From the NCBI GenBank assembly GCA_044225175.1, contig JBGAJA010000001.1, forward strand, positions 678,711 through 742,710: 64,000 bases of DNA. The letters run 5' to 3'. Below, in pieces: positions 17,095 through 33,503 of the stretch. The notes beneath the pieces were generated by a model, which worked only from the letters and a program-made list of their open reading frames with translations, made no database searches and had not been told where the DNA came from. Each line of letters starts with the position of its first letter. Within the stretch, counting starts at the first letter, position 1. The translations under genes were made by a program, and so were the position numbers. This DNA comes from Candidatus Omnitrophota bacterium (GTDB taxonomy: Bacteria; Omnitrophota; Gorgyraeia; Zapsychrales; Fredricksoniimonadaceae).

Positions 17095-20000
17095 CTATTT
17101 AGCAGTGGGCTCAAAAAGATCTAAAGTTTTAGCTATCTCATCTTTACGAGAAGATTTAGGAATCTTTTGAGAAATCACAGGATTTGATTGTTTTGGCACA
17201 ATAATTGAAGAAGAAGGTACTTTATTCATTAAAACTCTAGATTTATTTAAAAGTTCTTCAGTTTTCTTATATTTAGGTATTAAATCCTGAATATCTGAGA
17301 ATCTTTGTGCGGCTTCTCTATAATTTCCAGATTTATATAGTTTTAATGCTTCAGAATACATTGACTCAACACCACTATTAAATTGCTGGCGAATTACCGA
17401 TCTTTGAGATTCTAAAGCATCTTGACGTTCTTTAACTGCTTTCTCGATAGCAAGTCGTTCCTTATCTTTAGCACGAGCTAATTCCTCTTCTTTTATTTGT
17501 GCTAAGCGTTTTCTTTCTTTTTCTTCAGCTGCTTGTCTTCTTCGCTCAGTCTCTTTTTGACGCTCTAATTCTTTTTCTTTACGTGTAGCTTCAATTTTCT
17601 TTTGATCTTCTTCTTTTTGCTTACGAATTTCTTCTAATTTCTTTTGTTCTTCTTCTTTTTGCTTACGAATTTCTTCTAATTTCTTTTGTTCTTCCTCTTT
17701 TTGTTTACGAATTCTTTCTAATTTTTTTTGTTCTTCTTCTTTTTTATCTTTGATCTCTTGTTCTTTTCTCAATCGATCTTCTTCTTTTTGTTTTCTTTCT
17801 TCTTCAATTTTCTTTCTTTCATTCTCTTGTTTTTGCTTCAATTCTTCCTTTTTTCGATTCAATTCTTCTTCTTTCGCTTTTTTTAGATCTTCAATCCGCT
17901 TTTGTTCAATTTCTTGTTTATGCCTTAACTCTTCTTCTTTTTTGCGATTTTGTTCCTTCTTTTCCTCTAAGGGAGCATCATTCTTTTTAACTTCTATCTT
18001 AGGTTGTTCAACAACTTTAACTGGATCCGCAATTATCTTAGGAACATCGGGAATATGTTTAATTTCTGCCGGATTTCGTTGTAATGAAATTTCTTTTTGC
18101 GACTCTTTTTTTGCTGGTTTCAATTTCCTAAAATGATAAACCTGCTCTTTTTGACGAAGTTGTTGATCAGAATTTCTACGTTGAGTCTCTAAACGTTGCT
18201 GCTGTCTTTCTTCTATTTTTAATGATTCAAAACGTCGACGCTCTTCTTGCTGCTGAGCTTCCATAAGATTTTTTTGTCTTTCTAGCTCATAAGTTAAACG
18301 TCTCTGGCGTTGCTGCTCCTTAACATCCATTAAATCAGCAACTCTCTGTTGACGAAGTCTTTCAGCTAAATAATCAGATCTTTCTTTCTCAACTTTGTTC
18401 TTGGTCTTATAAACATCGTTTTTCATGATGTGGTCAATTTTATTTAAATATGAAGTTGCCCGATCATCACCTTGAGAAGCTAATTCTCCGAAAATGATTC
18501 TGGCTTGAGCGTATTTCTTTACACCATACAACTCAACTCCTTGACGATAAATCACCTCACGTTGACGCCTAAGATCCCTGTTTTTATATGATTCAGCCTC
18601 TTTTGCTTCAGCAATGTGTTCTTGTTTTCTTTCTTTTTCCAGGGAAGCGATATTAGTAAATTTATGACTACGAAGACGTTTTTGTATAGAAACTTTTTTA
18701 GCTTCTTCTTTAATGATAAGTTCTACTTTTGATTGAGATTTCTCCAACATTTCTTGCTCTGTCTCATGAGCTAAAGTTTGTTTAATTGTTTTTAATTCAA
18801 TCATTGTATGTTCAAGATCTTCAAACCTAGTTTTTGCAGCAGCGTAATCCTTATTCTTCGCAAATTTTAGAATTTCATCATTAATTTTTGATGCTCTAAT
18901 GGCAACTTCAGATAATCTTTCTTTTAATTCTTCAATTTTTTCTTTTCTATGTTGAGATTCTTCTATTCTTCTTTTAATTCTTTCCTCTTTAAGTCTCTTT
19001 TCCTCTTCTATAGCACGCTCAGCAGCCGCCTGCTCTTCAACACGTTTTCGATCTTCATCGATATGCATTAAATAATCATGCGTCGCTTTATACCCCGGTT
19101 GAATATTTTCTACCTCTAAAAATCTTATTTTTGCCCCTTGAAAATCTTTTTCTTTGAGTAAATTTAAGGCTTCACTATAATTTTCCTGTGCTTTCTGTAA
19201 TCTAATCTGTGCTTTTTCTTTATATTCCTGTTGAAGTCTTCGTTGTTCTTCTTCTCTAGCTTCTCTGAGCGTTCTGTCTTTTTCTTCACGTAAATTTTGT
19301 AAAACTTGATCAACTTTTGCTAATTTTGATTTTGCAATATTTGTTTGCTTATCATCTGATAAATTAACTATTTGCCCATATAGCCTTGAAGCTCTCTGAG
19401 AAAGTTCGTCTAAAAGCTTGGCTTCATCTACTTGTGTATTATTATTAGTAGTAGAAGAAACAGGATGATTTATCTTTGTTGTTTCATCTATTTGTTGAGA
19501 TTCTAGACCACTAGGTTGGGACTTTTGAAGCTCTTTGGCATGTTTATCAAGGAATGCTTTTTGATTTTTTGCAACACGATTCTTTTCTTCCTGCTCAAGC
19601 TTATTAAATTCAACCCTATCAACTACAGATAAAGATTTCTTTTGTTTTTCTTGCTCTAAGAACTTCTTTCTTTTTTCTTCTAGACGTTGAGCTGCTTCTT
19701 GTTCTAAATTTTTTTCTCTTTCTTGTCTTCTGTTGGCTTCAGCAAGCGCTTTGTCAGTTTTTCTTAAATAAGAATCTACAGACTTATACTCTTTGTCTAC
19801 TTTTACAATTTCCTCAAATTTTGATTTTGCTTCAATGTAATTATGAGCTTTATAAAGACTAATCCCTTCAGTATACATCGCTTCAACATTTTTCATTAGT
19901 TCTTTGCTGTTTTCATTTTGCTGTTGGAGCGGGGGAATAGCTTGTTTCTTAGCTTGTTTTGAAAGGTCTTCGATTTGTTTCTTGGCAATTTCTTGATCTA

Positions 20001-21738
20001 TAGAAACCAAATACTTTTGAGTTGCTTTATAATTACCTATTAATTGTTCAACATTCTTAAAACCTTCTTTTGCTTCTTGATATTTTTTCTGTCGATATAA
20101 AGACAAGGCTATCTGATAACTATCTTCTGTTTTTACTTTGAGTTGTTTTTGTTTTTCTAGTTCTTGGCGTTTTTGTTCAGCTTGCTTCTCTCGTTTAGCC
20201 TTCTCTTCATCTTTACGCTGTTGTCTCAAGCTTCTTTGTTTTTCTAGTTCTTCTTGTTTGCTTTTCTCTTCTAAAGTTTGCTGCTTTTTCTGTTCTTTCT
20301 CGCGTTGTTGGTCTAAAATTTTTTGCTTAGATTGTTCTTCTAACCGTTTTTTCTGTTCTTCTTTTTGCTTTTTCTCTTCTTCTCTTTTTTCAATTTCTTT
20401 TTGTTGATTACGTTTTAATTCAAGTTCTTTTATCTTTTGTTGGTCGATTAAATCTTGTTTAGCTTGATTGGTATGAAATAATTTTTCTTGTTCTGTTTCT
20501 TGTTGCCGTGTTTTTTCCTTACGGGCGTTATCTATCTCGGCTTGTTTTTCAATGATAGCTCTTTGTTTTTGATTTTCATCTTGAAGCTTCTTAATCATTT
20601 CTTGCTGCTCTTTTTGTTTTTCAAGGAATTTTTTATTTTCTTCCGCTTCCAATTGTTTTTGTTTGGCTTGATTAAGCAAAGATTGTCTCTCTATTTCTAA
20701 AGCCTTTAATCTCAACTTTTCTTTCTCTTGTTTTTCTTTGTCTATGGCCTGTTGAATTTTTAATGCGTCTTGCTTCTTTTGATTTTCTTCTTTTAATCTT
20801 TTAAGTTCATTATTCTTTTCTTCCAAAAGTTTTTGACGTTCTTGTTCTTTTAAACGTTTTTCTTCTTCTTTTTTCTGAATCTGTTCTTTCTTTAAACGCT
20901 GACGTTCTAACTCTTTTTGCTTTTGTTCTTCTTTAGCTTGTTCGTTTTTCTTGCGCAAATCTTCAGCCTGTTGTTCTTTTTGTTTTTTAATATTTTCTGC
21001 ATCGGCTTGTCTTTTTTGTCTGTCTAACTCGGCTTGTTGTTCTTTTTGTTTCTTAATATTCTCTGCTTCTGTTTGCTTTTTTTGTCGTTCCAACTCAACT
21101 TGCTGTCTTTTTTGTTCCAAAATTTTTTCTTCTTTTAGTCGGTCACTAATTTGTTTCAGGTAAGTTTTGGTTGATTTGTAATTAGGAAAGGATTTCTCGA
21201 GATTCTCAAAAGTACTTTGAGCATCACCATAATTCTTTTGTCGATAATAGGATAAAGCTTGCTGATAGAGATCTTCAGTTCTTTGCTCTGATTCTCTTTT
21301 CTGATCAAGCATTTCTTTCTGCTGCAGATCTTTTTGTTTTCTTAAAGCTATTTCCTGTTTGCGTAAACGCTCTTCACTTATCTTAATATTAGCAATTAAC
21401 TCAGCACGTTCAGTAACCTTGACAGCTTTATTAAAATAATAACGGGCAGAATCAAATTTGCCTTCTTCCATAAGTAGAAGGCCTTTATCATAATAATCTT
21501 TTGCGTTTGTCTCTCGAATTTCTTGTTTTTTGGCGTTTGATTCACTTTTAATTTTTTGATTTAAAGACTTAATATTTTCTTGAGATTCAACAATCAATCT
21601 TTTGAGCGTCTCTTCATAATTAGTTGTTGAACTATTGGGGACTGAGGCAGCTTGTTCATCAGCAAAGACACTAGATGAACAAAAAATACTTAATAAAAGT
21701 ATCGTAGGAAGAAAAGTAAGTGAAGAAATTTTTTGCAT
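17095..21738 (-). CDS. Giant (1547 aa) secreted Lys/Glu/Gln-rich coiled-coil protein with eight TPR-like modules
   Basis: Signal peptide ([26 protein letters not shown]). Eight dispersed modules of about 40 aa of the form a-L-x-L-Y-x4-Y-x2-A-x3-F-x7-P-x-YK-x-T-x2-YL-x2-I are separated by long KE-rich heptad regions. Contains in-frame tandem DNA repeats. Confidence 0.8.
17560..17740. repeat. Tandem 45-bp repeat (about 4 copies, two of them identical) inside the giant gene
   Basis: Unit ttcttctttttgcttacgaatttcttctaatttcttttgttc (minus-strand sense). Encodes [14 protein letters not shown] repeated four times. Confidence 0.8.
20958..21090. repeat. Tandem 60-bp repeat (2 copies) inside the giant gene
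   Basis: The ...ttgttgttctttttgtt...aatatt.tctgc...ttgtc unit is repeated. Encodes [22 protein letters not shown] twice. Confidence 0.7.
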
Positions 21739-22916: not shown

Positions 22917-23666
22917 TTATTGGAATTTCCAAGAACGCAGTTTATCTAAAAAGATATCATCCGTCAAGCCGCAACGAACTGCGGTTACTGTAACATATCC
23001 ATTCTTCAGTGCATACGTATCATATGAATTGTCATCCACATGTTTGGGATTTGCTCCTGTCATCCAGAAATAGACTTTTTCATGAGGACTCAAACGTTTT
23101 TCAAATTTCCCAAATATGGGTTCTGCTCCCTGTTTAGTCGGAAGAATACCCTTAATCTTTCCAAGAGGAACATTAACGTTTAAGAATGTGCCTTTTGGTA
23201 ATGTATGTTTGAATGCTAGTTTAGCTAACTTTGCTCCAACTTTGGCTGCCTGAGTAAAATCCGGGTTCTCATGGGTATCTAAGGAAAGTGCAATTGAGTC
23301 AACCCCCATCAAAGCACCTTCTCTTGCACCTGCAACAGTTCCGGAATAAAAGACGCTGCAACCATCATTACCGCCAAAATTAATTCCAGACACAACCAGA
23401 TCAGGTTTCTTGCCTTTAAGAATAACTTCAATCCCAACTTTTACACAATCGGCTGGCTTTCCACTAACGGCATGACCAAAGAATTTATTATTAAGCTTAA
23501 CATCACGAACGAAGAGCGGCTGGTACAAGGTTATTCCATGCCCTACAGAACTTTGCTCATTCTCTGGAGCAACAACGGTTACATCAGCAAATTTAATAAG
23601 CTCTTTATAAATGGCAAGGATGCCAGGAGCAAAAATGCCATCATCATTAGTCAAAAGAATTTTCAT
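22917..23666 (-). CDS. surE: 5'/3'-nucleotidase SurE
   Basis: 249 aa with the N-terminal [11 protein letters not shown] motif (SurE DD metal site). Confidence 0.85.
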   Translation of the reverse strand: MKILLTNDDGIFAPGILAIYKELIKFADVTVVAPENEQSSVGHGITLYQPLFVRDVKLNNKFFGHAVSGKPADCVKVGIEVILKGKKPDLVVSGINFGGNDGCSVFYSGTVAGAREGALMGVDSIALSLDTHENPDFTQAAKVGAKLAKLAFKHTLPKGTFLNVNVPLGKIKGILPTKQGAEPIFGKFEKRLSPHEKVYFWMTGANPKHVDDNSYDTYALKNGYVTVTAVRCGLTDDIFLDKLRSWKFQ

Positions 23667-25468
23667 TAAATACTATACTCCGGATCTAAAACAACAGCTT
23701 TGATCAGAAGATCGACAATTTTTTTGACCGCGGCATCTGATTCTTCATTCTCAATAAGATTTAAGTCAATGCTTGATTCTAAGAATCGGTTCTCTCCAAC
23801 ATTGACAACAAAGGTACGGTTGGGACTATTTAGCTTCTTAAGCATATCTAATTCATATTGATCAATATCTGTGATACTCGTAATCATAATCAGACCTGCA
23901 TCGGTCATAATATGGGCTAACTCACCTAACTGTTCTAAGGCTTCATACTTTCCTAATGTCTTGTCTTTGGAATCGTGAGTGGCTAATGCTAAACGGTTAG
24001 ACACTCCAAGAAAATAAACTTTCTTCTCTAAGTTGAATAATTGTTCTTCAAGAGCTTTGGCAATACGCTGCTTACCCGTATCTATCTTTCCTGTGATCAC
24101 AATAAAAGCAGATTTATGCTGATACTTAGATGATCGAATATCAGGGGTGATATGACTTCTTTCCCATCCATACTCTCTATTCTTAATATGGTTAGAAAGC
24201 AAGCTATCACTATCAAAAACTGGAGCTAAAATAATTCCACCACCGGCAATTTCATAGTTATCAACTAAGACAAAACGTCCTGTTTCAGCAACATCCGTGA
24301 TCAGGTCAAAAGCAATAGGCTTTAAAGTTTCAAAAACCACCTCTCCTACTTCATGCCGGTCGACGTGAGGCTTGTTACTGGAGGCAAGTTCAGCGGCATT
24401 AAGCACATGTAATACTTCAGAAACTACCACCGGCACTTGTTGAGTGGCAATTTTTAACTTATATGTCTTATTCTTAACTAAAGGCTGCTTACCCATCCAA
24501 AAGATATTAGCCTTGAACTTGGATGACACTTGCGGATTCTTCTCAGAAGGCTTAACCATAACCTCACCTGGACGAATGTAAATCTCTGTTTCCATGGTAA
24601 AGCCGGAGCTTTGACCAGCAAATGCTTCTGTACGTGTAGCTCCATTAAAATATTCAATTGTTTTAATACGATTCTTCTTACCAGACGGAAGGAATACAAT
24701 TTCATCACCAAGCTTGATCGTTCCAGTCTCAACACGACCTGCAACAATGCGGCGATCATCCCCTTCTTCTGTGAATTTATAAATATCTTGAACGGGCATA
24801 CGAAAGACTTGCTGGTCCTTAGGAGCTGCCTTTTCAAAGTTATCTAAAACTCCAAGGATAGACTGACCTTTATACCAAGGCATATTTGGTGAAGGACTAA
24901 CCATATTGTCCCCATGAAATGCGGCAATTGGAATAAAACAGTTGGGCTTTAAATCAATTTCATTTAAAAATTTAGTATAATCCGTTTTAATTTGTTCAAA
25001 AACTTTTTGATCATAACCAACTAAGTCCATCTTATTCACACACACAGCCACATTTTTGATTCCAAGAAATCTCATCACATAACCATGGCGTTTGGAGTTT
25101 TCTTTGATTCCCTCATGAGCATCAATGAGCAAAAGTGCTGCCTCAGCACGTGCTGCTCCTGAAATCATGTTCTTTAAAAACTCGATATGCCCTGGAGCAT
25201 CAATAATAATGTAATCACGCTTGGCAGATTTAAAGAAGCTACGGGCCGTATCAATTGTAATCCCTTGGGATTGTTCGTCCTTAAGAGCATCAAGCAAGAA
25301 AGCATACTCAAAAGGCTTAGCATTACGGGCACAATTGGCCTTTACTGCTTCGAGTTTACCATCCGGCAGTGACCCAGTATCAGCCAAAAGCCGTCCAACC
25401 AAGGTGCTTTTCCCATGGTCTACATGCCCTACAATAACCACATTCATTTGTTCGCGCTGAATATTCAT
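23666..25468 (-). CDS. cysN: Sulfate adenylyltransferase subunit 1 (CysN GTPase) fused to a degenerate APS-kinase-like C-terminal domain
   Basis: 600 aa. GTPase G1-G4 motifs (GHVDHGKST; DAPGH; NKMD). The C-terminal about 165 aa align to CysC, but the P-loop reads [10 protein letters not shown] (not GLSGSGKST), the DGDN motif is replaced by LGVSNRL, and the KGLYKKAR lid is absent. Confidence 0.85.
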
Positions 25469-25471
25469 AAT

Positions 25472-26059
25472 TTAATCCATATCCTTCCAAGGCATCATAA
25501 TTCCTTCAACTTTATGAGGAGCAATTAAAGGTTCTGAAAAAGAAGCGGGAAAATTGCGAATGGGACTCTCTATATGAGGCCAACAACATTCCGCGCATAA
25601 TAATTCTGCAGGTTTAGTAATTTCCGTAAACTTGGGGGCTTCTTTTCCCCATTGATAACTACCCTTATCCCAATAGGCAATACTTGCTAAAGACGAACAT
25701 TTCTGACAAGAACCTTGAATAGTATTTAAACCCCTGTCAATTACATCTCCAGCAATATCTGCAAGTTGATATTTCTTTATATCCTCGGGGGTATAATATT
25801 GGTAATAAAAACCTTTTGGGTTCCTGATATTCCAATCAGGATATAACACAATCATTTTTTTGTTAAAGCCAAGAAACACTTGTTTAAATTCACTAATTAA
25901 ATGCTTCCTGCAAAGATCTTTTTCTTTTCCATTTGGATATCGTAAAGTATCCATAGCTTCTTGATCACATCCGGGACATTTTTTACCAAAAGCCCGATGT
26001 AAAACTGTATAAAGGTATAAAAAAATGATAGTGCCAACTATCGCAATTAATACGATCAT
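25472..26059 (-). CDS. Membrane-anchored Cys-rich protein of unknown function (two CxxC motifs plus CAECC)
   Basis: 195 aa with an N-terminal TM, then CPGC ... CQKC ... CAECC. Overlaps the cysD stop and cysN start, so it is embedded in the operon. Confidence 0.45.
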   Translation of the reverse strand: MIVLIAIVGTIIFLYLYTVLHRAFGKKCPGCDQEAMDTLRYPNGKEKDLCRKHLISEFKQVFLGFNKKMIVLYPDWNIRNPKGFYYQYYTPEDIKKYQLADIAGDVIDRGLNTIQGSCQKCSSLASIAYWDKGSYQWGKEAPKFTEITKPAELLCAECCWPHIESPIRNFPASFSEPLIAPHKVEGIMMPWKDMD

Positions 26060-26970
26060 TACATGTACCCTTCTTTACGTAACGTTTCCAAACCCCCGCC
26101 ATCTTCTTTATCCTGGGCGCGGCCGGAGCGTTCGGCAATGTTCTTAAACTTGCCTTCTCTGAGTTCTTTGACAATGTCGGCCACATTCTTAGCTGTGGAA
26201 TCAACAGGTGTTGTGCAAGGGTAGCATCCTAAGGAACGATATCTTTTTCCCTTACCTTGATCGAAGTATAGGTCAGTGATAGGGATCTTTTCACGTTCAA
26301 TGTATTCCCAAATATTAAGTTCAGTCCAGTCCAGCAGTGGATGAATACGAATATGGGTTCCTGGAGCGAAATCCGTCTTGAATTGATTCCAAAGTTCAGG
26401 CGGTTGATCACCTACATCCCAGTCGCTGTTTCTATCTCTTGGAGAGAAATAACGCTCCTTGGAACGACTGCCTTCTTCGTCAGCGCGTGCGCCTACAATG
26501 ACGCCAATATATGGCTCCGTGTTGGTATCCACGTCATATTTGCCTGTTTTGTGATTCAATCTCCAGCGCTGCCATTCTCCTGACAAAGTCTTCTTTAAAG
26601 CCTCGCTTTTAAGCGCTTTGCAGCATGAAATTCTGTCCAAATTACCGTCGGGGAACGTGCGTTTTTCCTTCAAAGCTTGGGTGTTTTGACCAATCACCAT
26701 GTTGAGATTAAATTCCATGGCAAGCTTGTCACGATATTGAATCATCTCTGGAATTTTATAGCTCGTATCAATATGGACTAAAGGAAATGGCACATGGCCA
26801 TAGAATGCCTTGCGGGCAAGCCACAAAAGCACAGTTGAGTCTTTTCCAATCGACCAAAGCATCACCAGTGACTTAAACTCTCTATATGCCTCACGCAGAA
26901 TGTAAACGCTTTGTGATTCGAGTTGATCTAGTTTATCCATTGTTTTTGCCATAATTAAATCCTTCATCAA
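26059..26970 (-). CDS. cysD: Sulfate adenylyltransferase subunit 2
   Basis: 303 aa with a PAPS-reductase-like fold carrying the PP-loop SIGKDS; full-length CysD similarity. Confidence 0.85.
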
Positions 26971-26990
26971 TATCCTCTTTACAGGATCCT

Positions 26991-27767
26991 CTATCTATCA
27001 TGTGTTCTGTCATGATTTTTTAATGATGTTCCCTTCCATTTGGGGTTGTTATGCAGCCCACATTCTTTTTGCTCAGGCTGTTCCCACCACCAGCGGCCTG
27101 CACGGATATCTTCGCCAGGTTTAACCGCTCTGGTACAACAAGCACAGCCGATTGAAATAAAGCCTTGTGCATGCAAAGGGTTCACATCAATCTTTTGTTC
27201 TTGAATATACTTATGCACATCTTCCAATGTCCAATCTGCTAAAGGATTGATCTTAATCTTGCTATTTGCATCATCCCATTCAAAAATCTCCAAATTGGCA
27301 CGAGTTAAAGCTTGTTGTTTACGTAATCCTACAATCCAAGCATCCACATTGATTAAAGCCCTTTGTAAAGGTTCAACCTTGCGGATATGGCAGCATAATT
27401 TACGATTCTCAACACTGTTATAAAACAAATTAATCCCTTTTTCTTGAACCATTGTTTCAAGATGTTGATTGTTTGGATAATAGACTTTGAATTTAACTTT
27501 AGGATATTTCTTCTGATTCTTATCTAAGAGTTCATATGTTTCTTGAAACAATCGTCCAGTATCTAAAGTAAAGATCTCAATAAAAGGAGCCCCCTTGGAA
27601 ATAATATCTGTTATTACCTGGTCTTCTTCACCCAGGCTCGTTGCAAAATTGACCTTATCACCAAACTCTTGGTAGGCTAATCTGATAATGCCCGCAGCAT
27701 CCAATCCCTTAGCTTTTTCATTAAGCTGTTGAATCTTGTCTTTGTTCATATCTTCCTTAAATATCAA
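26991..27767 (-). CDS. cysH: Adenylyl-sulfate (APS) reductase, thioredoxin-dependent, Fe-S type
   Basis: 258 aa. C-terminal ECGLH catalytic motif plus both cluster-binding cysteine pairs that distinguish APS from PAPS reductases ([12 protein letters not shown] matches CCxxRKxxPL; SIGCACCT matches SxGCxxCT). Confidence 0.85.
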
Positions 27768-28182
27768 AACTAATTGTTTTTACTTGCTCACGCTGACGAT
27801 CACAAAGATCAGCAAGACTGACTTCTTTTAGGGTTTGAATAATACTTTGATCGATTTTCTGCCACAAAAGGCTTATCGCATCACCCTTAATTGTTTTACG
27901 CTTCTCTTCATCAAAAGTTCCAAGACCGCCTAATTGTTTAACCACATCAGCTAAGTTAATTTCTTTGGGTGAAACTGCCAATATATAGCCACCTGATTTC
28001 CCTCGAACACTGTGAATATACCCCAAACCTTTTAATGCAATCAAGATATGAATCAAAAATTTCTGTGATACTCCAGCTTTACGGCTAAGACGACTAATTT
28101 GAAGAGGAGTTGTATTAGGCCAATGAAGTCCGAGCTCTAAAAGGGCCCTTACTGCATAATCCATTCTAGCAGAAACTTTCAT
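27757..28182 (-). CDS. Rrf2-family transcriptional regulator (IscR/CymR-like)
   Basis: 141 aa: MKVSARMDYAVRALLEL...wHTH (ISRLSRKAGVSQKFLIHILIALKGLGYIHSVRGKSGGY). Overlaps cysH by 11 bp. Confidence 0.75.
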   Translation of the reverse strand: MKVSARMDYAVRALLELGLHWPNTTPLQISRLSRKAGVSQKFLIHILIALKGLGYIHSVRGKSGGYILAVSPKEINLADVVKQLGGLGTFDEEKRKTIKGDAISLLWQKIDQSIIQTLKEVSLADLCDRQREQVKTISFDI

Positions 28183-28197
28183 AAGCCACCTCTTTCC

Positions 28198-29283
28198 TTA
28201 AATCTCAAACTCATAATAGGTCACATTGCGTAAAGAAACATAGACCTCATCATTTTTCTTTAATGCTAGAGCACGAAATTCATCTTGTGAAATCTCAGCT
28301 TGAATGGGATCGCCATCGCTTGTTATTAAATCAACCTTAACAACGGAACCTGCAGGATTCAAATACTCAATGACGGCCTTTAGAGAAGACTTGTCTTTTG
28401 ATTGACGGGTTATCTCAAACTGATGAGGCCTCACAAAGACATTGGCAGTTTTGGAATTCTTATCCACAGTGGGCAAATCAATGGCTGAACTTCCTACATA
28501 TGCTTTGCCATCCTCTACTCGAGCGTGGAATAGATTAACATTCCCTAAAAAATTTAAAACAAATTTATTGGCTGGTTTATGATAAACCTCATCTGGAGTA
28601 CCAACTTGTTCAACCTTACCCTTATTCATCACCACAATACGATCTGCCACTTCAAGAGCTTCTTCTTGATCGTGAGTAACAAAAAGGGTTGTAATGTGAA
28701 GTTGATCGTGAAAGTGTCTAAGCCAAGTGCGTAATTCTTTACGCACTTGGGCATCTAAAGCCCCAAAGGGCTCATCTAAAAGTAAAACCTTAGGTTCAAT
28801 AGCTAGTGCACGAGCCAAAGCAATGCGTTGACGTTGTCCACCTGATAACTGCCAAGGATATCGATTCCCCACCCAATCCAATTGCACCAAATTCAAAAGT
28901 TCATTAACCTTTGCCTTAATTATTTGCTCGGATGGCCTATTTTTCTTAGGTTTGACCCGTAAACCAAAAGCAATATTATCAAATACGGTCATATGGCGAA
29001 ACAAAGCATAATGCTGAAACACAAATCCAACCCCACGATCCTGGATTTTATGCTCCTTGGTATCTTCCCCATGAAACAAGATCTCCCCCTGTTGTGCATA
29101 TTCAAGCCCCGCAATAATACGAAGCATGGTCGTCTTCCCCGACCCTGAAGGGCCCAAAAGCGCAATCAATTCCCCTGTTTGGACATTCAAACTCACATCA
29201 TCCAAAGCTTTAAAAGCCCCAAAACTCTTTGTAATATTTTTAATTTCAATACTCATAGGATTAATGCCCTCCTTGTCGGGCAA
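28198..29283 (-). CDS. cysA: Sulfate/thiosulfate ABC transporter ATP-binding protein
   Basis: 361 aa with Walker [10 protein letters not shown], signature LSGGQRQR, Walker B LLLDEP and a C-terminal TOBE domain. An alternative start at Met10 (29256) removes the overlap with cysW. Confidence 0.85.
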
Positions 29284-30142
29284 ACTTCAATTCATGCCGA
29301 TACTTGTATTCAACTAGACTTTTTAGAATTAATGTAACAACCGCTAACATAGCCAATAGTGAAGCTGCGGCAAATGAGGCTGTGAATTGGTATTCGTTGT
29401 AAAGAATTTCAATATGAAGTGGCAACGTGTTTGTCAGGCCGCGGATATGACCAGAAACTACTGAAACTGCTCCAAACTCTCCCATGGCGCGTGCATTACA
29501 TAAAATGACGCCATATAGCAATCCCCATTTGATATTAGGTAATGTGACCAGCCAAAACGTTTTAAATCCACTGGCCCCTAGGGTGATAGCGGCTTCCTCC
29601 TCTTCATTCCCTTGTGACTTCATCAAAGGAATAAGTTCACGAGCTACCATAGGAAATGTCACAAAAATGGTTGCCAAAATGATACCTATAGGAGCAAAGA
29701 TGATCTTAATATCGTGATCCATTAGCCATGGACCTAACAAACCTTGCGCCCCAAACATCAATACATAGATAAGTCCTGAGATTACAGGTGAAACAGACAG
29801 TGGCAAATCAATCAAAGTTAATAGAAAATTTTTCCCATAAAAATCAAATTTGGCAATGGCCCAGGATGCTGCAATTCCAAAGATCAAATTTAAAGGTACT
29901 GCAATGGCGGCTGTTAATAATGTTAATTTGATTGCTGCCACAGCATTGGGTTCAGAAATGGATTGAAAATAAAATGCTAAGCCTTTGTTTAATCCTGTGG
30001 ATATAACTAGTACTAAAGGCATCACCAAGAACAGCCCTATAAAAATTAGGGCAATCGCAATTAAAGTCCATTTGACAATAGCTGGTTCTTTTCGTATTTG
30101 AGACATACTTAATTCATTCCTATTTTTTTCGATGCATACCAC
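29261..30142 (-). CDS. cysW: Sulfate ABC transporter permease
   Basis: 293 aa with 6 TM helices and the EAA-like loop ([21 protein letters not shown]). Confidence 0.8.
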
Positions 30143-30942
30143 TGTAAGAAATTAGTAAATGCAAGAATGACAAAAGACACTAACAGCATCACAACTGCAA
30201 TGGCGGATGCTCCTGTGTAATCATATTGTTCTAATTTGGTTATAATTAAAAGTGGTGCGATTTCCGTTTTACCCGGCATATTGCCTGCAATAAAGACAAC
30301 TGAGCCGTACTCTCCAATACAACGAGCGAAAGCTAGACTAAAACCTGTAAGTACAGCTGGCAAAAGCACCGGGAATATAATCTTTACAAAGGTTTGAAAG
30401 CGATCTGCACCAAGACTTGCCGCTGCTTCTTCTAATTCAGGATCCAAGTCTTCTAAAATTGGTTCAATTGTTCTCACAATAAACGGCAACCCAATAAAAA
30501 TTAAAGCCAATGTAATACCTAAAGGCGAATAAGCTGTTTGAATGCCCATCTTATAAAGATACTGCCCCATCCATCCGTTTTGAGAATAAAGCGATGTTAA
30601 GGCAATACCTGCAACCGCAGTTGGTAAAGCAAAGGGCAAATCAATTAAAGCATCAATGATCTTTTTACCTGGAAATTTATAGCGGGCTAACACCCAAGCA
30701 ATCAAAAATCCAAATACTACATTTACTAATGAGGCAACAAACGCCGCACCAAAGCTTAAGCGATAGGCTGCCAATGTTCTTGGAGATAAAATAACTTCCC
30801 AAAAATCATACCATCCCATGGTGGAAGTCTTAAAAAACAAAAGAGATAAGGGAATTAAGACAATTAAACTTAGGTAAAAAATTGTATAACCTAAGCTTAA
30901 ATTGAATCCTGGTAATGTTGAACGAGTTTTGAGTAAAAACAT
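30109..30942 (-). CDS. cysT: Sulfate ABC transporter permease
   Basis: 277 aa with 6 TM helices and an EAA loop (EAAASLGADRFQTFVKIIFP). Confidence 0.8.
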   Translation of the reverse strand: MFLLKTRSTLPGFNLSLGYTIFYLSLIVLIPLSLLFFKTSTMGWYDFWEVILSPRTLAAYRLSFGAAFVASLVNVVFGFLIAWVLARYKFPGKKIIDALIDLPFALPTAVAGIALTSLYSQNGWMGQYLYKMGIQTAYSPLGITLALIFIGLPFIVRTIEPILEDLDPELEEAAASLGADRFQTFVKIIFPVLLPAVLTGFSLAFARCIGEYGSVVFIAGNMPGKTEIAPLLIITKLEQYDYTGASAIAVVMLLVSFVILAFTNFLQWYASKKIGMN

Positions 30943-31049
30943 AATGTTCTTATAAAATAGGTAAGGACAACTATGAAAGCTGTCCTTACTATGTTGATTA
31001 GCTGGGTTAGAATACTAATAATCTCTTAAGAGATCAACCAAATTTTCTT

Positions 31050-32057
31050 TTAATTCCCATAAATTTGATCAAAAATTCCTTTATCAGCGAAATGTTTCTT
31101 CTGTGCAGCTTGCCATCCACCAAATTCTTGGATTGTAATCAAATTAGACGATTTAAATTGGCTTTCATACTTCTTGGCTACTGATGCCAAGCGAGGCCGA
31201 TAGTAATTCTTCGTGGCAATTTCTTGTCCTTCCTCACTGTAAAGATACTTTAGGTATTCTTCAGCAATTTTTCTTGTGCCATGTTTATCAGCAACACGAT
31301 CAACTAAAGCAACAGGTGGTTCAGCTAGAATACTTAAGGATGGAACAATAATATCAAATTGATCTGGCCCTAATTGATTGACCGCCAGATAGGCTTCGTT
31401 TTCCCATGCCAAAAGAACATCCCCGATTTTTCTTTCAACAAACGTTGTTGTAGATCCCCGAGCTCCGGAATCCAAAACTGGGACATTTTTGAATAAAGCA
31501 GAAACAAATTCCTTACTTTTTACTTCATCACCACCAAATTTCTTCTGAGCATAACCCCAAGCAGCTAGATAATTCCATCTAGCTCCCCCCGAGGTCTTTG
31601 GATTAGCAGTAATCACAGAAATGCCTGGTTTTACTAAATCATCCCAATCTTTAATGTTCTTAGGATTTCCTTTTCGAACTAAAAAAACAATCGTGGATGT
31701 ATAGGGTGTGCTGTTATGTTCTAAACGAGCTTGCCAAGTTTTAGGTAGAAGACCTCCCTTGTCGGCAATATTGTCGATATCATATGCTAAGGCGAGTGTG
31801 ACAACATCAGCATCCAACCCGTCAATTACAGAACGAGCTTGTTTGCCGCTTCCCCCATGAGATTGATTGATCGTCACATCCTGACCACTGACTTCCTTCC
31901 AATGAGCTGCAAAAGCTTTGTTATACTCTTCATAAAGCTCCCGTGTAGGGTCATAGGATACATTTAATAACGTAATTGGTTTGGCTGAAGCTAATCCAGC
32001 TAAACTAAATATAATTGTAAAAATAATCAAACTACTTAACCAATTCTTGCTTTTCAT
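31050..32057 (-). CDS. sbp: Periplasmic sulfate/thiosulfate-binding protein
   Basis: 335 aa with a signal peptide and full-length Sbp/CysP similarity ([25 protein letters not shown]). Confidence 0.85.
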
Positions 32058-32123
32058 ATAATTCTCTCTTTCTTAATGTTTTATTGTCACTTCTGCCTGC
32101 CGGCAGGCAGGCCCCAGGTTCAT

Positions 32124-33503
32124 TTAATAAGACAATTGTAAACGTGTAAACACAATATTTTCAGTGGGACGATTTTCAGTTGCTGCTGCCCCTTGTTTGA
32201 AATGAGTTTGCTCATAATCAACGCTCAGACGAACATTTTTATGAGGATACCAGTTCAAACCAGCTGCCCATGCTTCTTCTTTAGAAACAGCAGTTGTTGC
32301 GCTGGCAAAGCCACGATCAAAAATACTATCATCTAATCGTAGTTGACCATAACGACCAACAACTTCAAAAGCACCCCATGTGCCTTTTTGTAAGTCAAAA
32401 TTGTTACGAGGTGTTATACCTTTAAAAGAAGCTAATTCTCCAGTTAATACATAATTACCAGATAGCTGCCAGGCTTGATTAGTAAATGTATCATGAATAT
32501 TGGTGCCACGTGTGAATTCTTGAGAAGATTTTACGTATTCACCAAGAAGTCCAAAACCCCCGTTATAGTAATAAAATTGAGGACTAACTCGCGTATGCGC
32601 CCCATCAGCTACAAGACCAGTTCCTGAATATGTAAAGACACTTGCTTGTCCAGGAGATCTATAGGTAGGAACGCTGCTTCCTTCTTTATGACCATAGGAT
32701 CCTGCAATACCTGTACCTAATCCTTTTAATACCTCAGGCCCATGATTTTTAAAAGGCTGAACAAAGACACGGCCTATGACATCTTTATCATTATTATTAT
32801 CTGCCGCATCCACACTTGCTAAATCTGCTCCACCATTAAAAATACCAACCGCATAATTAGTTGTGTCACCAAACAAATCACCAAAAACCTGGAAACCAAC
32901 ATCACGGTTTGGTACTAAATTTGATGGTAAGCCAGTTTCTATAAAATTAGCGACAGCATCAGATTGCAAACGTTCTAATCCTAATGGAGCTTTAAATTTA
33001 CCACCGCGGATCTTGAGTGAAGGCCATAACTTGAAATCCACATAAGCATCCACCAACTGAGCATTAGCACTAGTAGTTGCATTAACTGCCAAATCCGGCA
33101 TCAAATAAAAATCCCAATTCTTACCTACCGTACCTTCAAAGATAGGGCGGGCTCTTCTAACTAGGAAGTTATCTGTGGTTCCTGTTAAATCTTTACTATT
33201 ACCTGTAAAGACGCGCGCATCTGCTTGAACTAATCCTCGAAGCTTTAATTTAAAGCTTTCATCTGGGCTCTTAATGCTAAAGCCGTCTTTTGCACTAGCT
33301 GTAATGACTGGTGTTTCAGGTGCCTTTTTCGCACTTTCTTCCTTATCTACCTCAATTTGACGCTTTAATATAGCCATTTGCTGTTCCAATTCCGCTAATC
33401 TTTGCTCCAAGGCCGTACTATCTGCGAAAACTGGGCTAATGGAAGATATCGGCAATAATACACTTAAAGCTAAAATACCTAATGTACGACTAAAAGACTT
33501 CAT
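32124..33503 (-). CDS. Outer-membrane porin of the phosphate-selective porin O/P (OprO/OprP) family, first gene of the sulfate-transport operon
   Basis: 459 aa with a signal peptide, the N-terminal coiled-coil ALEQRLAELEQQMAILKRQIE typical of Porin_O_P, and a beta-barrel ending in ...RLQLSY. Confidence 0.7.
   Translation of the reverse strand: MKSFSRTLGILALSVLLPISSISPVFADSTALEQRLAELEQQMAILKRQIEVDKEESAKKAPETPVITASAKDGFSIKSPDESFKLKLRGLVQADARVFTGNSKDLTGTTDNFLVRRARPIFEGTVGKNWDFYLMPDLAVNATTSANAQLVDAYVDFKLWPSLKIRGGKFKAPLGLERLQSDAVANFIETGLPSNLVPNRDVGFQVFGDLFGDTTNYAVGIFNGGADLASVDAADNNNDKDVIGRVFVQPFKNHGPEVLKGLGTGIAGSYGHKEGSSVPTYRSPGQASVFTYSGTGLVADGAHTRVSPQFYYYNGGFGLLGEYVKSSQEFTRGTNIHDTFTNQAWQLSGNYVLTGELASFKGITPRNNFDLQKGTWGAFEVVGRYGQLRLDDSIFDRGFASATTAVSKEEAWAAGLNWYPHKNVRLSVDYEQTHFKQGAAATENRPTENIVFTRLQLSY

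Follow-up and report, generated by a model that had tools for sequence, protein, structure and literature searches.

Why would a bacterium that appears equipped to reduce adenosine 5'-phosphosulfate (APS) directly keep an APS-kinase-like domain on its sulfate-activating enzyme? The question is raised by a 64,000-nucleotide stretch of a Candidatus Omnitrophota genome (GenBank assembly GCA_044225175.1, contig JBGAJA010000001.1, positions 678,711 to 742,710 of the forward strand; hereafter the window, whose own numbering we use). In it, cysN encodes a 600-residue GTPase subunit of ATP sulfurylase that ends in a degenerate relative of the APS kinase CysC, and cysH encodes a putative Fe-S APS reductase. 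An earlier note, made from the sequence alone, had proposed that the CysC-like domain is catalytically dead. Here we show that this domain belongs to a widespread, conserved pseudokinase module on CysN that spans several bacterial phyla. It is probably a non-catalytic derivative of an ancestral bifunctional CysNC protein that most likely serves to scaffold CysD·CysN dimers, a reading to which we give a probability of about 0.6.

Anatomy of the CysN C-terminal domain and type of the adjoining CysH

The features on which the argument rests are the following:

23666..25468, minus strand: cysN, 600-residue ATP sulfurylase GTPase subunit with degenerate APS-kinase-like domain
24224..25468, minus strand: GTPase with domains II and III of CysN, residues 1-415 (Pfam GTP_EFTU, GTP_EFTU_D2 and GTP-eEF1A_C)
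24110..24178, minus strand: 23-residue conserved N-segment in the CysC-like module, with a homologous counterpart at the N-terminus of true APS kinases (alignment to E. coli CysC)
23669..24109, minus strand: degenerate APS-kinase-like core, residues 454-600 (from the structure model and Foldseek)
24068..24091, minus strand: remnant P-loop GKIDTGKQ, residues 460-467, with GxxxxGK kept and Ser/Thr replaced by Gln
23990..24010, minus strand: LGVSNRL in place of LDGDNVR, residues 487-493, with both Asp and the Arg lost
23867..23878, minus strand: SITD in place of FISP, residues 531-534 (from alignments)
23669..23686, minus strand: conserved extreme C-terminal tail DPEYSI (from alignments); the lid upstream of the last helix is deleted
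26991..27767, minus strand: cysH, thioredoxin-dependent Fe-S APS reductase

The GTPase part of CysN has the features of a sulfate adenylyltransferase large subunit. Its G1, G3 and G4 motifs are intact, including NKMD, and the protein scored 349.3 against TIGR02034, the model for this subunit, above the cut-off of 336.1. The best solved match was Pseudomonas syringae CysN (1ZUN_B, E=1.4e-88, residues 4-406). By contrast, the model for bifunctional CysN/CysC proteins, NF004035, gave 441.1 bits against a cut-off of 715. A single open reading frame (ORF), orf195, separates cysN from cysD, and we counted the two genes as adjacent.

To the C-terminal part, the Pfam model APS_kinase (PF01583) aligned with 29 bits against a cut-off of 21.1, covering profile positions 2-83 of 152 only. 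A phmmer comparison with Arabidopsis thaliana APK1 (3uie) gave E=4.6e-6, and a profile built for the domain (A1) matched the PDB at E=1.3e-12. By these comparisons the domain is homologous to APS kinase beyond chance. An AlphaFold2 (AF2) model built on 14 sequences (m71ceb5096055) reached a predicted local distance difference test score (pLDDT) of 84-90 in the core, with low values for the N-segment in the monomer. In a Foldseek search with this model the top 25 matches, and 48 of the 50 listed, were APS kinases or the APS-kinase domains of PAPS synthases (PAPS, 3'-phosphoadenosine 5'-phosphosulfate), the best among them, including 6b8v, 1d6j, 3uie, 8a8h and 4bzp, at a probability of 1.00. The exceptions, at ranks 26 and 46, were the APS-kinase-like allosteric domain of Penicillium chrysogenum ATP sulfurylase (1m8p and 1i2d). 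The modelled domain thus retains the alpha/beta fold of APS kinase.

The motif register was examined by phmmer against APK1 and by a MAFFT alignment with E. coli CysC, Ilyobacter CysC and Skermanella CysNC. GKIDTGKQ lies opposite GLSGSGKS, LGVSNRL opposite LDGDNVR, and SITD opposite FISP, just as the earlier note had placed them, and a further segment of the domain lies opposite DRKENIRRVGE of true kinases. The MAFFT alignment also contains the deletion that the note had described as a missing KGLYKKAR lid: a stretch of about 30 residues (DPKGLYKKAR...FTGIDSxYE) is gone. Its statement that every catalytic hallmark had been lost was somewhat too strong. The Ser/Thr of the P-loop, LDGD, FISP and the lid are indeed absent, but the GxxxxGK backbone is retained.

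Measured against what characterizes an APS kinase, then, the domain has the alpha/beta fold and lacks the Walker-A GxxxxGK[S/T], the LDGD(N) loop and the lid. Gone with these are the Ser/Thr that binds Mg, the two Asp of LDGD, the Arg residues that bind APS and the lid as a whole; the CysC-type NCBIfam model gave a score of 51, with a cut-off of 163. In Mycobacterium tuberculosis CysC, Mg is bound by Ser457 of the P-loop; the lid holds Lys562, which is catalytic, and Arg559, which contacts adenine, and even a C556S exchange in the lid is enough to abolish activity (PMC4373884). Because these catalytic parts have been lost, established enzymology predicts that the domain would be unable to phosphorylate APS.

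Such a loss would fit a pathway in which APS is consumed directly. CysH passed the model for thioredoxin-dependent APS reductases (TIGR02055; 255.7, cut-off 235.3) and failed the PAPS-reductase model TIGR02057 (167.6, cut-off 254.2). Its best solved relative was Pseudomonas aeruginosa APS reductase (2GOY, E=4.1e-48, 227 residues aligned), to which all four cluster cysteines (CC and CxxC) and ECGLH were matched. The cysteine pairs and ECGLH that the earlier note had quoted are all present where it put them, with CC at residues 125-126 of a quoted peptide that spans 123-134, SIGCACCT at 205-212 (the CxxC equivalent lying in GCACCT) and ECGLH at 235-239. By model scores and aligned cysteines CysH is of the Fe-S APS-reductase type, as had been claimed, and is an ordinary family member with no notable difference from the P. 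aeruginosa enzyme.

Distribution, conservation and accompanying kinases

A scan of GTDB with one genome per species yielded 276 loci with a relative of the C-terminal domain, of which 80 were retrieved and examined. These came from Omnitrophota, from Planctomycetota (Phycisphaerae, Sedimentisphaerales, Anaerohalosphaeraceae) and from one metagenome-assembled genome (MAG) of Syntrophobacterales; the closest relatives were Candidatus Omnitrophota MAGs, some of them deposited under 'uncultured Planctomycetales'. The degenerate state, without GK[S/T], LDGD, FISP or lid, was found in all 80. Wherever the contig spans the complete gene, the domain terminates a CysN of about 600 residues. Two further carriers, both cultured, came from a tblastn search of plasmids: Ilyobacter polytropus (51% identity) and Gemmatirosa kalamazoonensis (45%), whose domains are likewise degenerate. 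In the 80 loci and Ilyobacter, the replacement of LDGD mostly reads LG[VILM]x[NS].

When 1.84 billion representative proteins were searched with a profile, 123 clusters passed E<=1e-30 and 525 passed E<=1e-10. Among the best matches 156 domains could be classified, and 141 of them lacked all three hallmarks. On a rough neighbour-joining tree these dead domains grouped in one clade, apart both from canonical CysC and from a 'semi-degenerate' type represented by P0143 and the middle domain of P0141. The latter protein (832 residues) consists of a GTPase, a semi-degenerate CysC-like domain (GLPGCGKEE, YLDAATMRF, lid partly kept) and a canonical CysC; P0143 (622 residues) carries the semi-degenerate type without another CysC. 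This type looks like a second, independent path to degeneration of the kinase domain.

Conservation was assessed in 81 sequences, mainly from Omnitrophota. The best-conserved segments were alpha1 (AKALEExLF), beta2 (YFLGxSN), the N-segment (R..W.RS.ITP..R...Y) and the C-terminal half of alpha2 into beta3 (LGE..H..TDxGLILI). Conserved in at least 90% of the sequences were R431, W435, R437, S438, I440, T441, P442, R445 and Y449 of the N-segment, G460, G465 and K466 of the P-loop, N491 and D502 near the former active site, and D595 and E597 of the tail. The residue after the P-loop Lys varies among Q, I, L, K, E, R and V.

Between the domain and those of its close relatives, nonsynonymous divergence (dN) was 0.04-0.29, or roughly 0.7-1.9 times the value for the GTPase region. 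For synonymous divergence (dS) the domain itself gave no estimate, which indicates saturation; the GTPase part of the same genes gave 2.1-3.5. The ratio dN/dS accordingly has no value, synonymous sites being saturated even against the closest relatives; qualitatively, dN lies far below dS. Because amino-acid divergence is low despite this saturation, the sequences point to purifying selection on the domain.

The cassette Rrf2-cysH-cysD-cysN is kept across phyla, with Rrf2 beside cysH in most, not all, loci, and an adjoining CysH had the Fe-S APS-reductase cysteines in 59 of 60 loci, the lone exception being a frameshifted gene. In the Omnitrophota MAG MFD01476.bin.2.120 (L050, 5082-8561) both cysN and cysH are split over several frames, tblastn finding cysN in three pieces and a truncated cysH. 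These are probably assembly frameshifts, not real pseudogenes, and frameshifts may explain short C-domain 'proteins' on long contigs (P0013, P0019).

Four clusters lack cysH, and each encodes a canonical CysC beside the dead domain. On the conjugative Ilyobacter plasmid pILYOP02 (L083, 2022-8791) a DASS transporter gene, cysC and genes for an AprA-like flavoprotein and a ferredoxin accompany cysD and cysN. Gemmatirosa plasmid 2 (L086, 6770-14109), whose PLSDB record is unannotated, carries cysN, a CysQ-like gene of the inositol-monophosphatase family, cysC, cysD and genes for an AT3/SGNH acyltransferase and a Sulfotransfer_4 protein, and is a sulfation-type cluster. In an Omnitrophota MAG (L078), cysC is divergently transcribed and has all motifs intact. 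The 771-residue metagenomic protein P0098 (L085:107-2422), followed by cysD, unites GTPase, dead domain and canonical CysC in one chain, in which Pfam finds two APS_kinase stretches; P0106 is a fragment of a three-domain protein of this kind. The canonical CysCs of L078, Gemmatirosa, P0098 and P0106 group with one another in the neighbour-joining tree, and their motif is LDGDxVR, not LDGDN.

In the branch formed by Gemmatirosa and P0098 the dead domain is kept and its P-loop is destroyed (TGPRDADRKS, TGPADEAESRKR), which led us to reject universal conservation of the P-loop remnant. We likewise rejected a restriction of the domain to the CysH route, since it is kept in the four clusters without cysH. 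No PAPS-type cluster had a kinase site restored in the dead domain.

Candidate roles for the pseudokinase domain

Two kinds of known protein resemble this CysN. In bifunctional CysN/CysC enzymes (NodQ, M. tuberculosis CysNC and Pseudomonas CysNC), an EF-1alpha-like GTPase likewise carries a C-terminal APS-kinase fold and is encoded beside cysD. Unlike the window CysN, true CysNC proteins (Skermanella, P0132, P0155 and P0181) keep all motifs. On sequence grounds the dead domain was very probably derived from a CysC domain of this type.

The second likeness, to fungal ATP sulfurylase, had been drawn in the earlier note and holds at the level of fold. The P. chrysogenum enzyme (1I2D/1M8P; its yeast analogue is Met3) also ends in a non-catalytic APS-kinase fold, a regulatory and oligomerization module, and appeared among the Foldseek matches described above. 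However, phmmer and profile searches of the PDB detected no sequence similarity to the fungal domain. The fungal domain sits on an unrelated Sat-type sulfurylase and keeps its PAPS site, whereas the window domain is fused to the CysN GTPase and has lost the APS/PAPS site and the lid, with the P-loop backbone surviving. We therefore do not class the window domain with the fungal allosteric domains: the different host enzyme, the lack of sequence similarity and the differing sites indicate independent origins. The open-access literature searched gave no account of a CysN with a degenerate CysC domain, which is not proof of absence.

A structural or regulatory role for the domain, as the earlier note had supposed, is plausible, and the following scheme would account for it. 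The operon encodes proteins for sulfate import, a GTP-driven CysD·CysN ATP sulfurylase that makes APS, and a thioredoxin-dependent CysH that reduces APS directly to sulfite, so that no PAPS step would be needed. The C-terminal 185 residues of CysN would derive from the CysC part of a CysNC ancestor; without the Ser/Thr for Mg, the LDGD loop, the arginines for APS and the mobile lid, they would no longer phosphorylate APS. Purifying selection across phyla would act through a non-catalytic job inside the sulfate-activating complex, in which the old kinase dimer interface (alpha2, alpha3 and the swapped N-segment) would hold two CysD·CysN units together. The GxxxxGK loop that survives may have a minor additional role in binding a ligand with a phosphate group.

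True APS kinases extend their N-terminal segment over to the other subunit of the dimer; here that segment is strongly conserved, although its pLDDT in the monomer model is low. The dimer interface of M. tuberculosis CysC is formed mainly by helices alpha2 and alpha3 (PMC4373884). We favour a scaffold because two of the best-conserved parts of the domain, the C-terminal half of alpha2 and the N-segment, match these elements of the kinase dimer. Several observations weigh against this interpretation. Over their whole length, alpha2 and alpha3 have a mean top-residue frequency of only 0.66 and 0.68, so that among the helices the conservation that would support a scaffold is limited to the C-terminal half of alpha2. 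The proposed dimer would also map conservation onto the helices of a different protein, and conservation of the P-loop Gly and Lys residues, N491 and D502 would fit retained ligand binding as well. E. coli CysN works without such a domain, so ATP sulfurylase activity does not inherently depend on one. Finally, the search for a separate cysC covered the 64-kb window, where tblastn with two CysC queries returned the dead domain only.

The other explanations differ in how much of this evidence they can accommodate. Continued kinase activity, on APS or on another small molecule, through a non-canonical active site might be read from the retained GxxxxGK and from the label 'bifunctional enzyme CysN/CysC' that the Joint Genome Institute (JGI) gives to homologues; the absence of the Mg-ligating Ser/Thr, of LDGD, of the lid Lys and Arg and of FISP, with NCBIfam scores far under the cut-offs (441 versus 715 and 51 versus 163), makes it scarcely credible. 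The NCBI annotation pipeline PGAP names the Ilyobacter orthologue 'GTP-binding protein' only, and the addition of a canonical CysC wherever neighbours imply PAPS use, with the dead domain kept, argues further against residual kinase activity, as does the degenerate state common to the whole multi-phylum clade. Nor does a decaying CysNC leftover without present function seem at all likely. As would be expected of a relic, the catalytic motifs have decayed, and the rate of evolution is somewhat above that of the GTPase part. Yet the domain is full length in 80 of 80 loci and in two cultured species, and these carriers span several phyla; conservation reaches at least 90% at many positions, and amino-acid divergence is low although synonymous sites are saturated. 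Its retention even ahead of a fused, functional CysC also argues against a functionless relic.

Two alternatives would give the domain work other than scaffolding. It might recruit CysH or another consumer of APS for direct handover, as the tight linkage of cysH, cysD and cysN in almost all loci and the conserved C-terminal tail [DV]xEYx[IL], which resembles a docking peptide, would suggest. Yet the APS-binding residues are lost, and docking of CysH is probably not the rule, since the clusters of Ilyobacter, Gemmatirosa, L078 and P0098, where APS would go to a true CysC instead, keep the domain; we regard this idea as improbable. Somewhat better placed, if still doubtful, is an allosteric sensor whose remnant pocket binds a nucleotide or sulfonucleotide (ATP/ADP, APS, PAPS or its product PAP, pyrophosphate or sulfate) and tunes CysN/CysD; such a sensor would be the bacterial equivalent of the fungal domain that binds PAPS. 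Conservation of GxxxxGK, N491 and D502 in at least 90% of the sequences and the match to the fold of the P. chrysogenum allosteric domain (1m8p, 1i2d) speak for it. On the other side, neither the residues that bind APS and PAPS nor the lid, which closes over both ligands, is left; the position following the Lys varies; and the Gemmatirosa/P0098 branch has kept the domain with its P-loop destroyed. For this last reason a sensing role cannot be universal, although it may apply to the Omnitrophota/Planctomycetota branch, with its G460, G465, K466, N491 and D502.

One of the clusters without cysH resembles a route described in an archaeon. Methanothermococcus thermolithotrophicus uses a PAPS route with a dissimilatory-type (AprAB-like) PAPS reductase (PMC10322725), and the Ilyobacter cluster, judged by its genes, is similar in its canonical CysC, AprA-like flavoprotein and ferredoxin. 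The window operon differs from that PAPS route in using CysH.

If the domain is non-catalytic, the family would have passed from pathway enzyme to pseudoenzyme at a switch from PAPS to direct use of APS and then been retained for another job, with PAPS-using lineages carrying an extra canonical CysC rather than a restored kinase site. Metagenome labels of 'bifunctional CysN/CysC' can therefore wrongly credit Omnitrophota, Planctomycetota and other uncultured groups with PAPS synthesis, an error that simple motif rules (no GK[S/T], LDGD or lid) would mend. The cultured carriers I. polytropus and G. kalamazoonensis would offer a tractable bacterial system for studying how APS-kinase-fold modules act in assembly, regulation and channelling. 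Were the domain a sensor instead, it would provide feedback control of sulfate activation in APS-reductase bacteria, independently of the fungal PAPS-allosteric domain, and the GTPase-pseudokinase-kinase proteins would be complete 'activate, sense, phosphorylate' machines.

The sulfate-assimilation operon and its neighbours

The window has a G+C content of about 38%. On its minus strand the operon runs in the order porin, sbp, cysT, cysW, cysA, Rrf2, cysH, cysD, orf195, cysN and surE. In addition to cysH and cysN, it contains:

28198..33503, minus strand: sulfate uptake genes cysA, cysW, cysT and sbp with an anion-selective Porin_O_P (from ORF translations; porin by Pfam)
27757..28182, minus strand: Rrf2-family regulator, CymR/IscR-like (Pfam Rrf2; TIGR00738 above cut-off)
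26059..26970, minus strand: cysD, ATP sulfurylase catalytic subunit with PP-loop SIGKDS (Pfam PAPS_reduct)
25472..26059, minus strand: orf195, orphan Cys-rich ORF of 195 residues with a hydrophobic N-terminal helix
22917..23666, minus strand: surE, 5'/3'-nucleotidase (Pfam SurE, 196.6 bits)

CysD scored 353.2 against NF003587, with a cut-off of 195. In the window the Rrf2 gene is the head of the cysH-cysD-cysN cassette, and the same ATP-binding-cassette (ABC) transporter genes stand ahead of the cassette in loci L002, L006, L011, L022, L025 and L033. A gene of the phosphate-selective-porin family Porin_O_P (32124-33503, minus strand) lies immediately upstream of sbp-cysTWA; its product is possibly an outer-membrane channel for sulfate or other anions that belongs to the same operon. 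A megablast search of the region against plasmids returned nothing.

The coordinates of the genes that the earlier note had placed at 23666-27767 were confirmed, but it had overlooked orf195 between cysD and cysN. The start of orf195 overlaps the cysD stop codon (TAATG), coupling its translation to that of cysD, and its cysteines occur in the groups CPGC, CQKC and CAECC. It had no match to a Pfam or NCBIfam family, and a search of 5.8 billion proteins matched it only to itself, on an NCBI contig and in one SRA assembly (SRR28480388). It was found in no related locus, cysD and cysN being adjacent there, and its single-sequence AF2 model was unusable (pLDDT 42).

At the other end of cysN, the start of surE overlaps the cysN stop codon (TAATG). 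The gene lies directly 3' of a dead-domain cysN in many Omnitrophota (L002, L003, L006, L009, L010, L053-L057 and L060), and a link to the turnover of AMP or PAP in sulfate assimilation is conceivable.

Beyond surE, a 1547-residue ORF (17095-21738, minus strand) has a signal-like N-terminus and consists mostly of Lys/Glu/Gln-rich, coiled-coil-like repeats that alternate with TPR-like 'YxxAxxxF...Y' units. Its AT skew is strong (-0.2 to -0.39), and nowhere else in the window is G+C as low (0.31).

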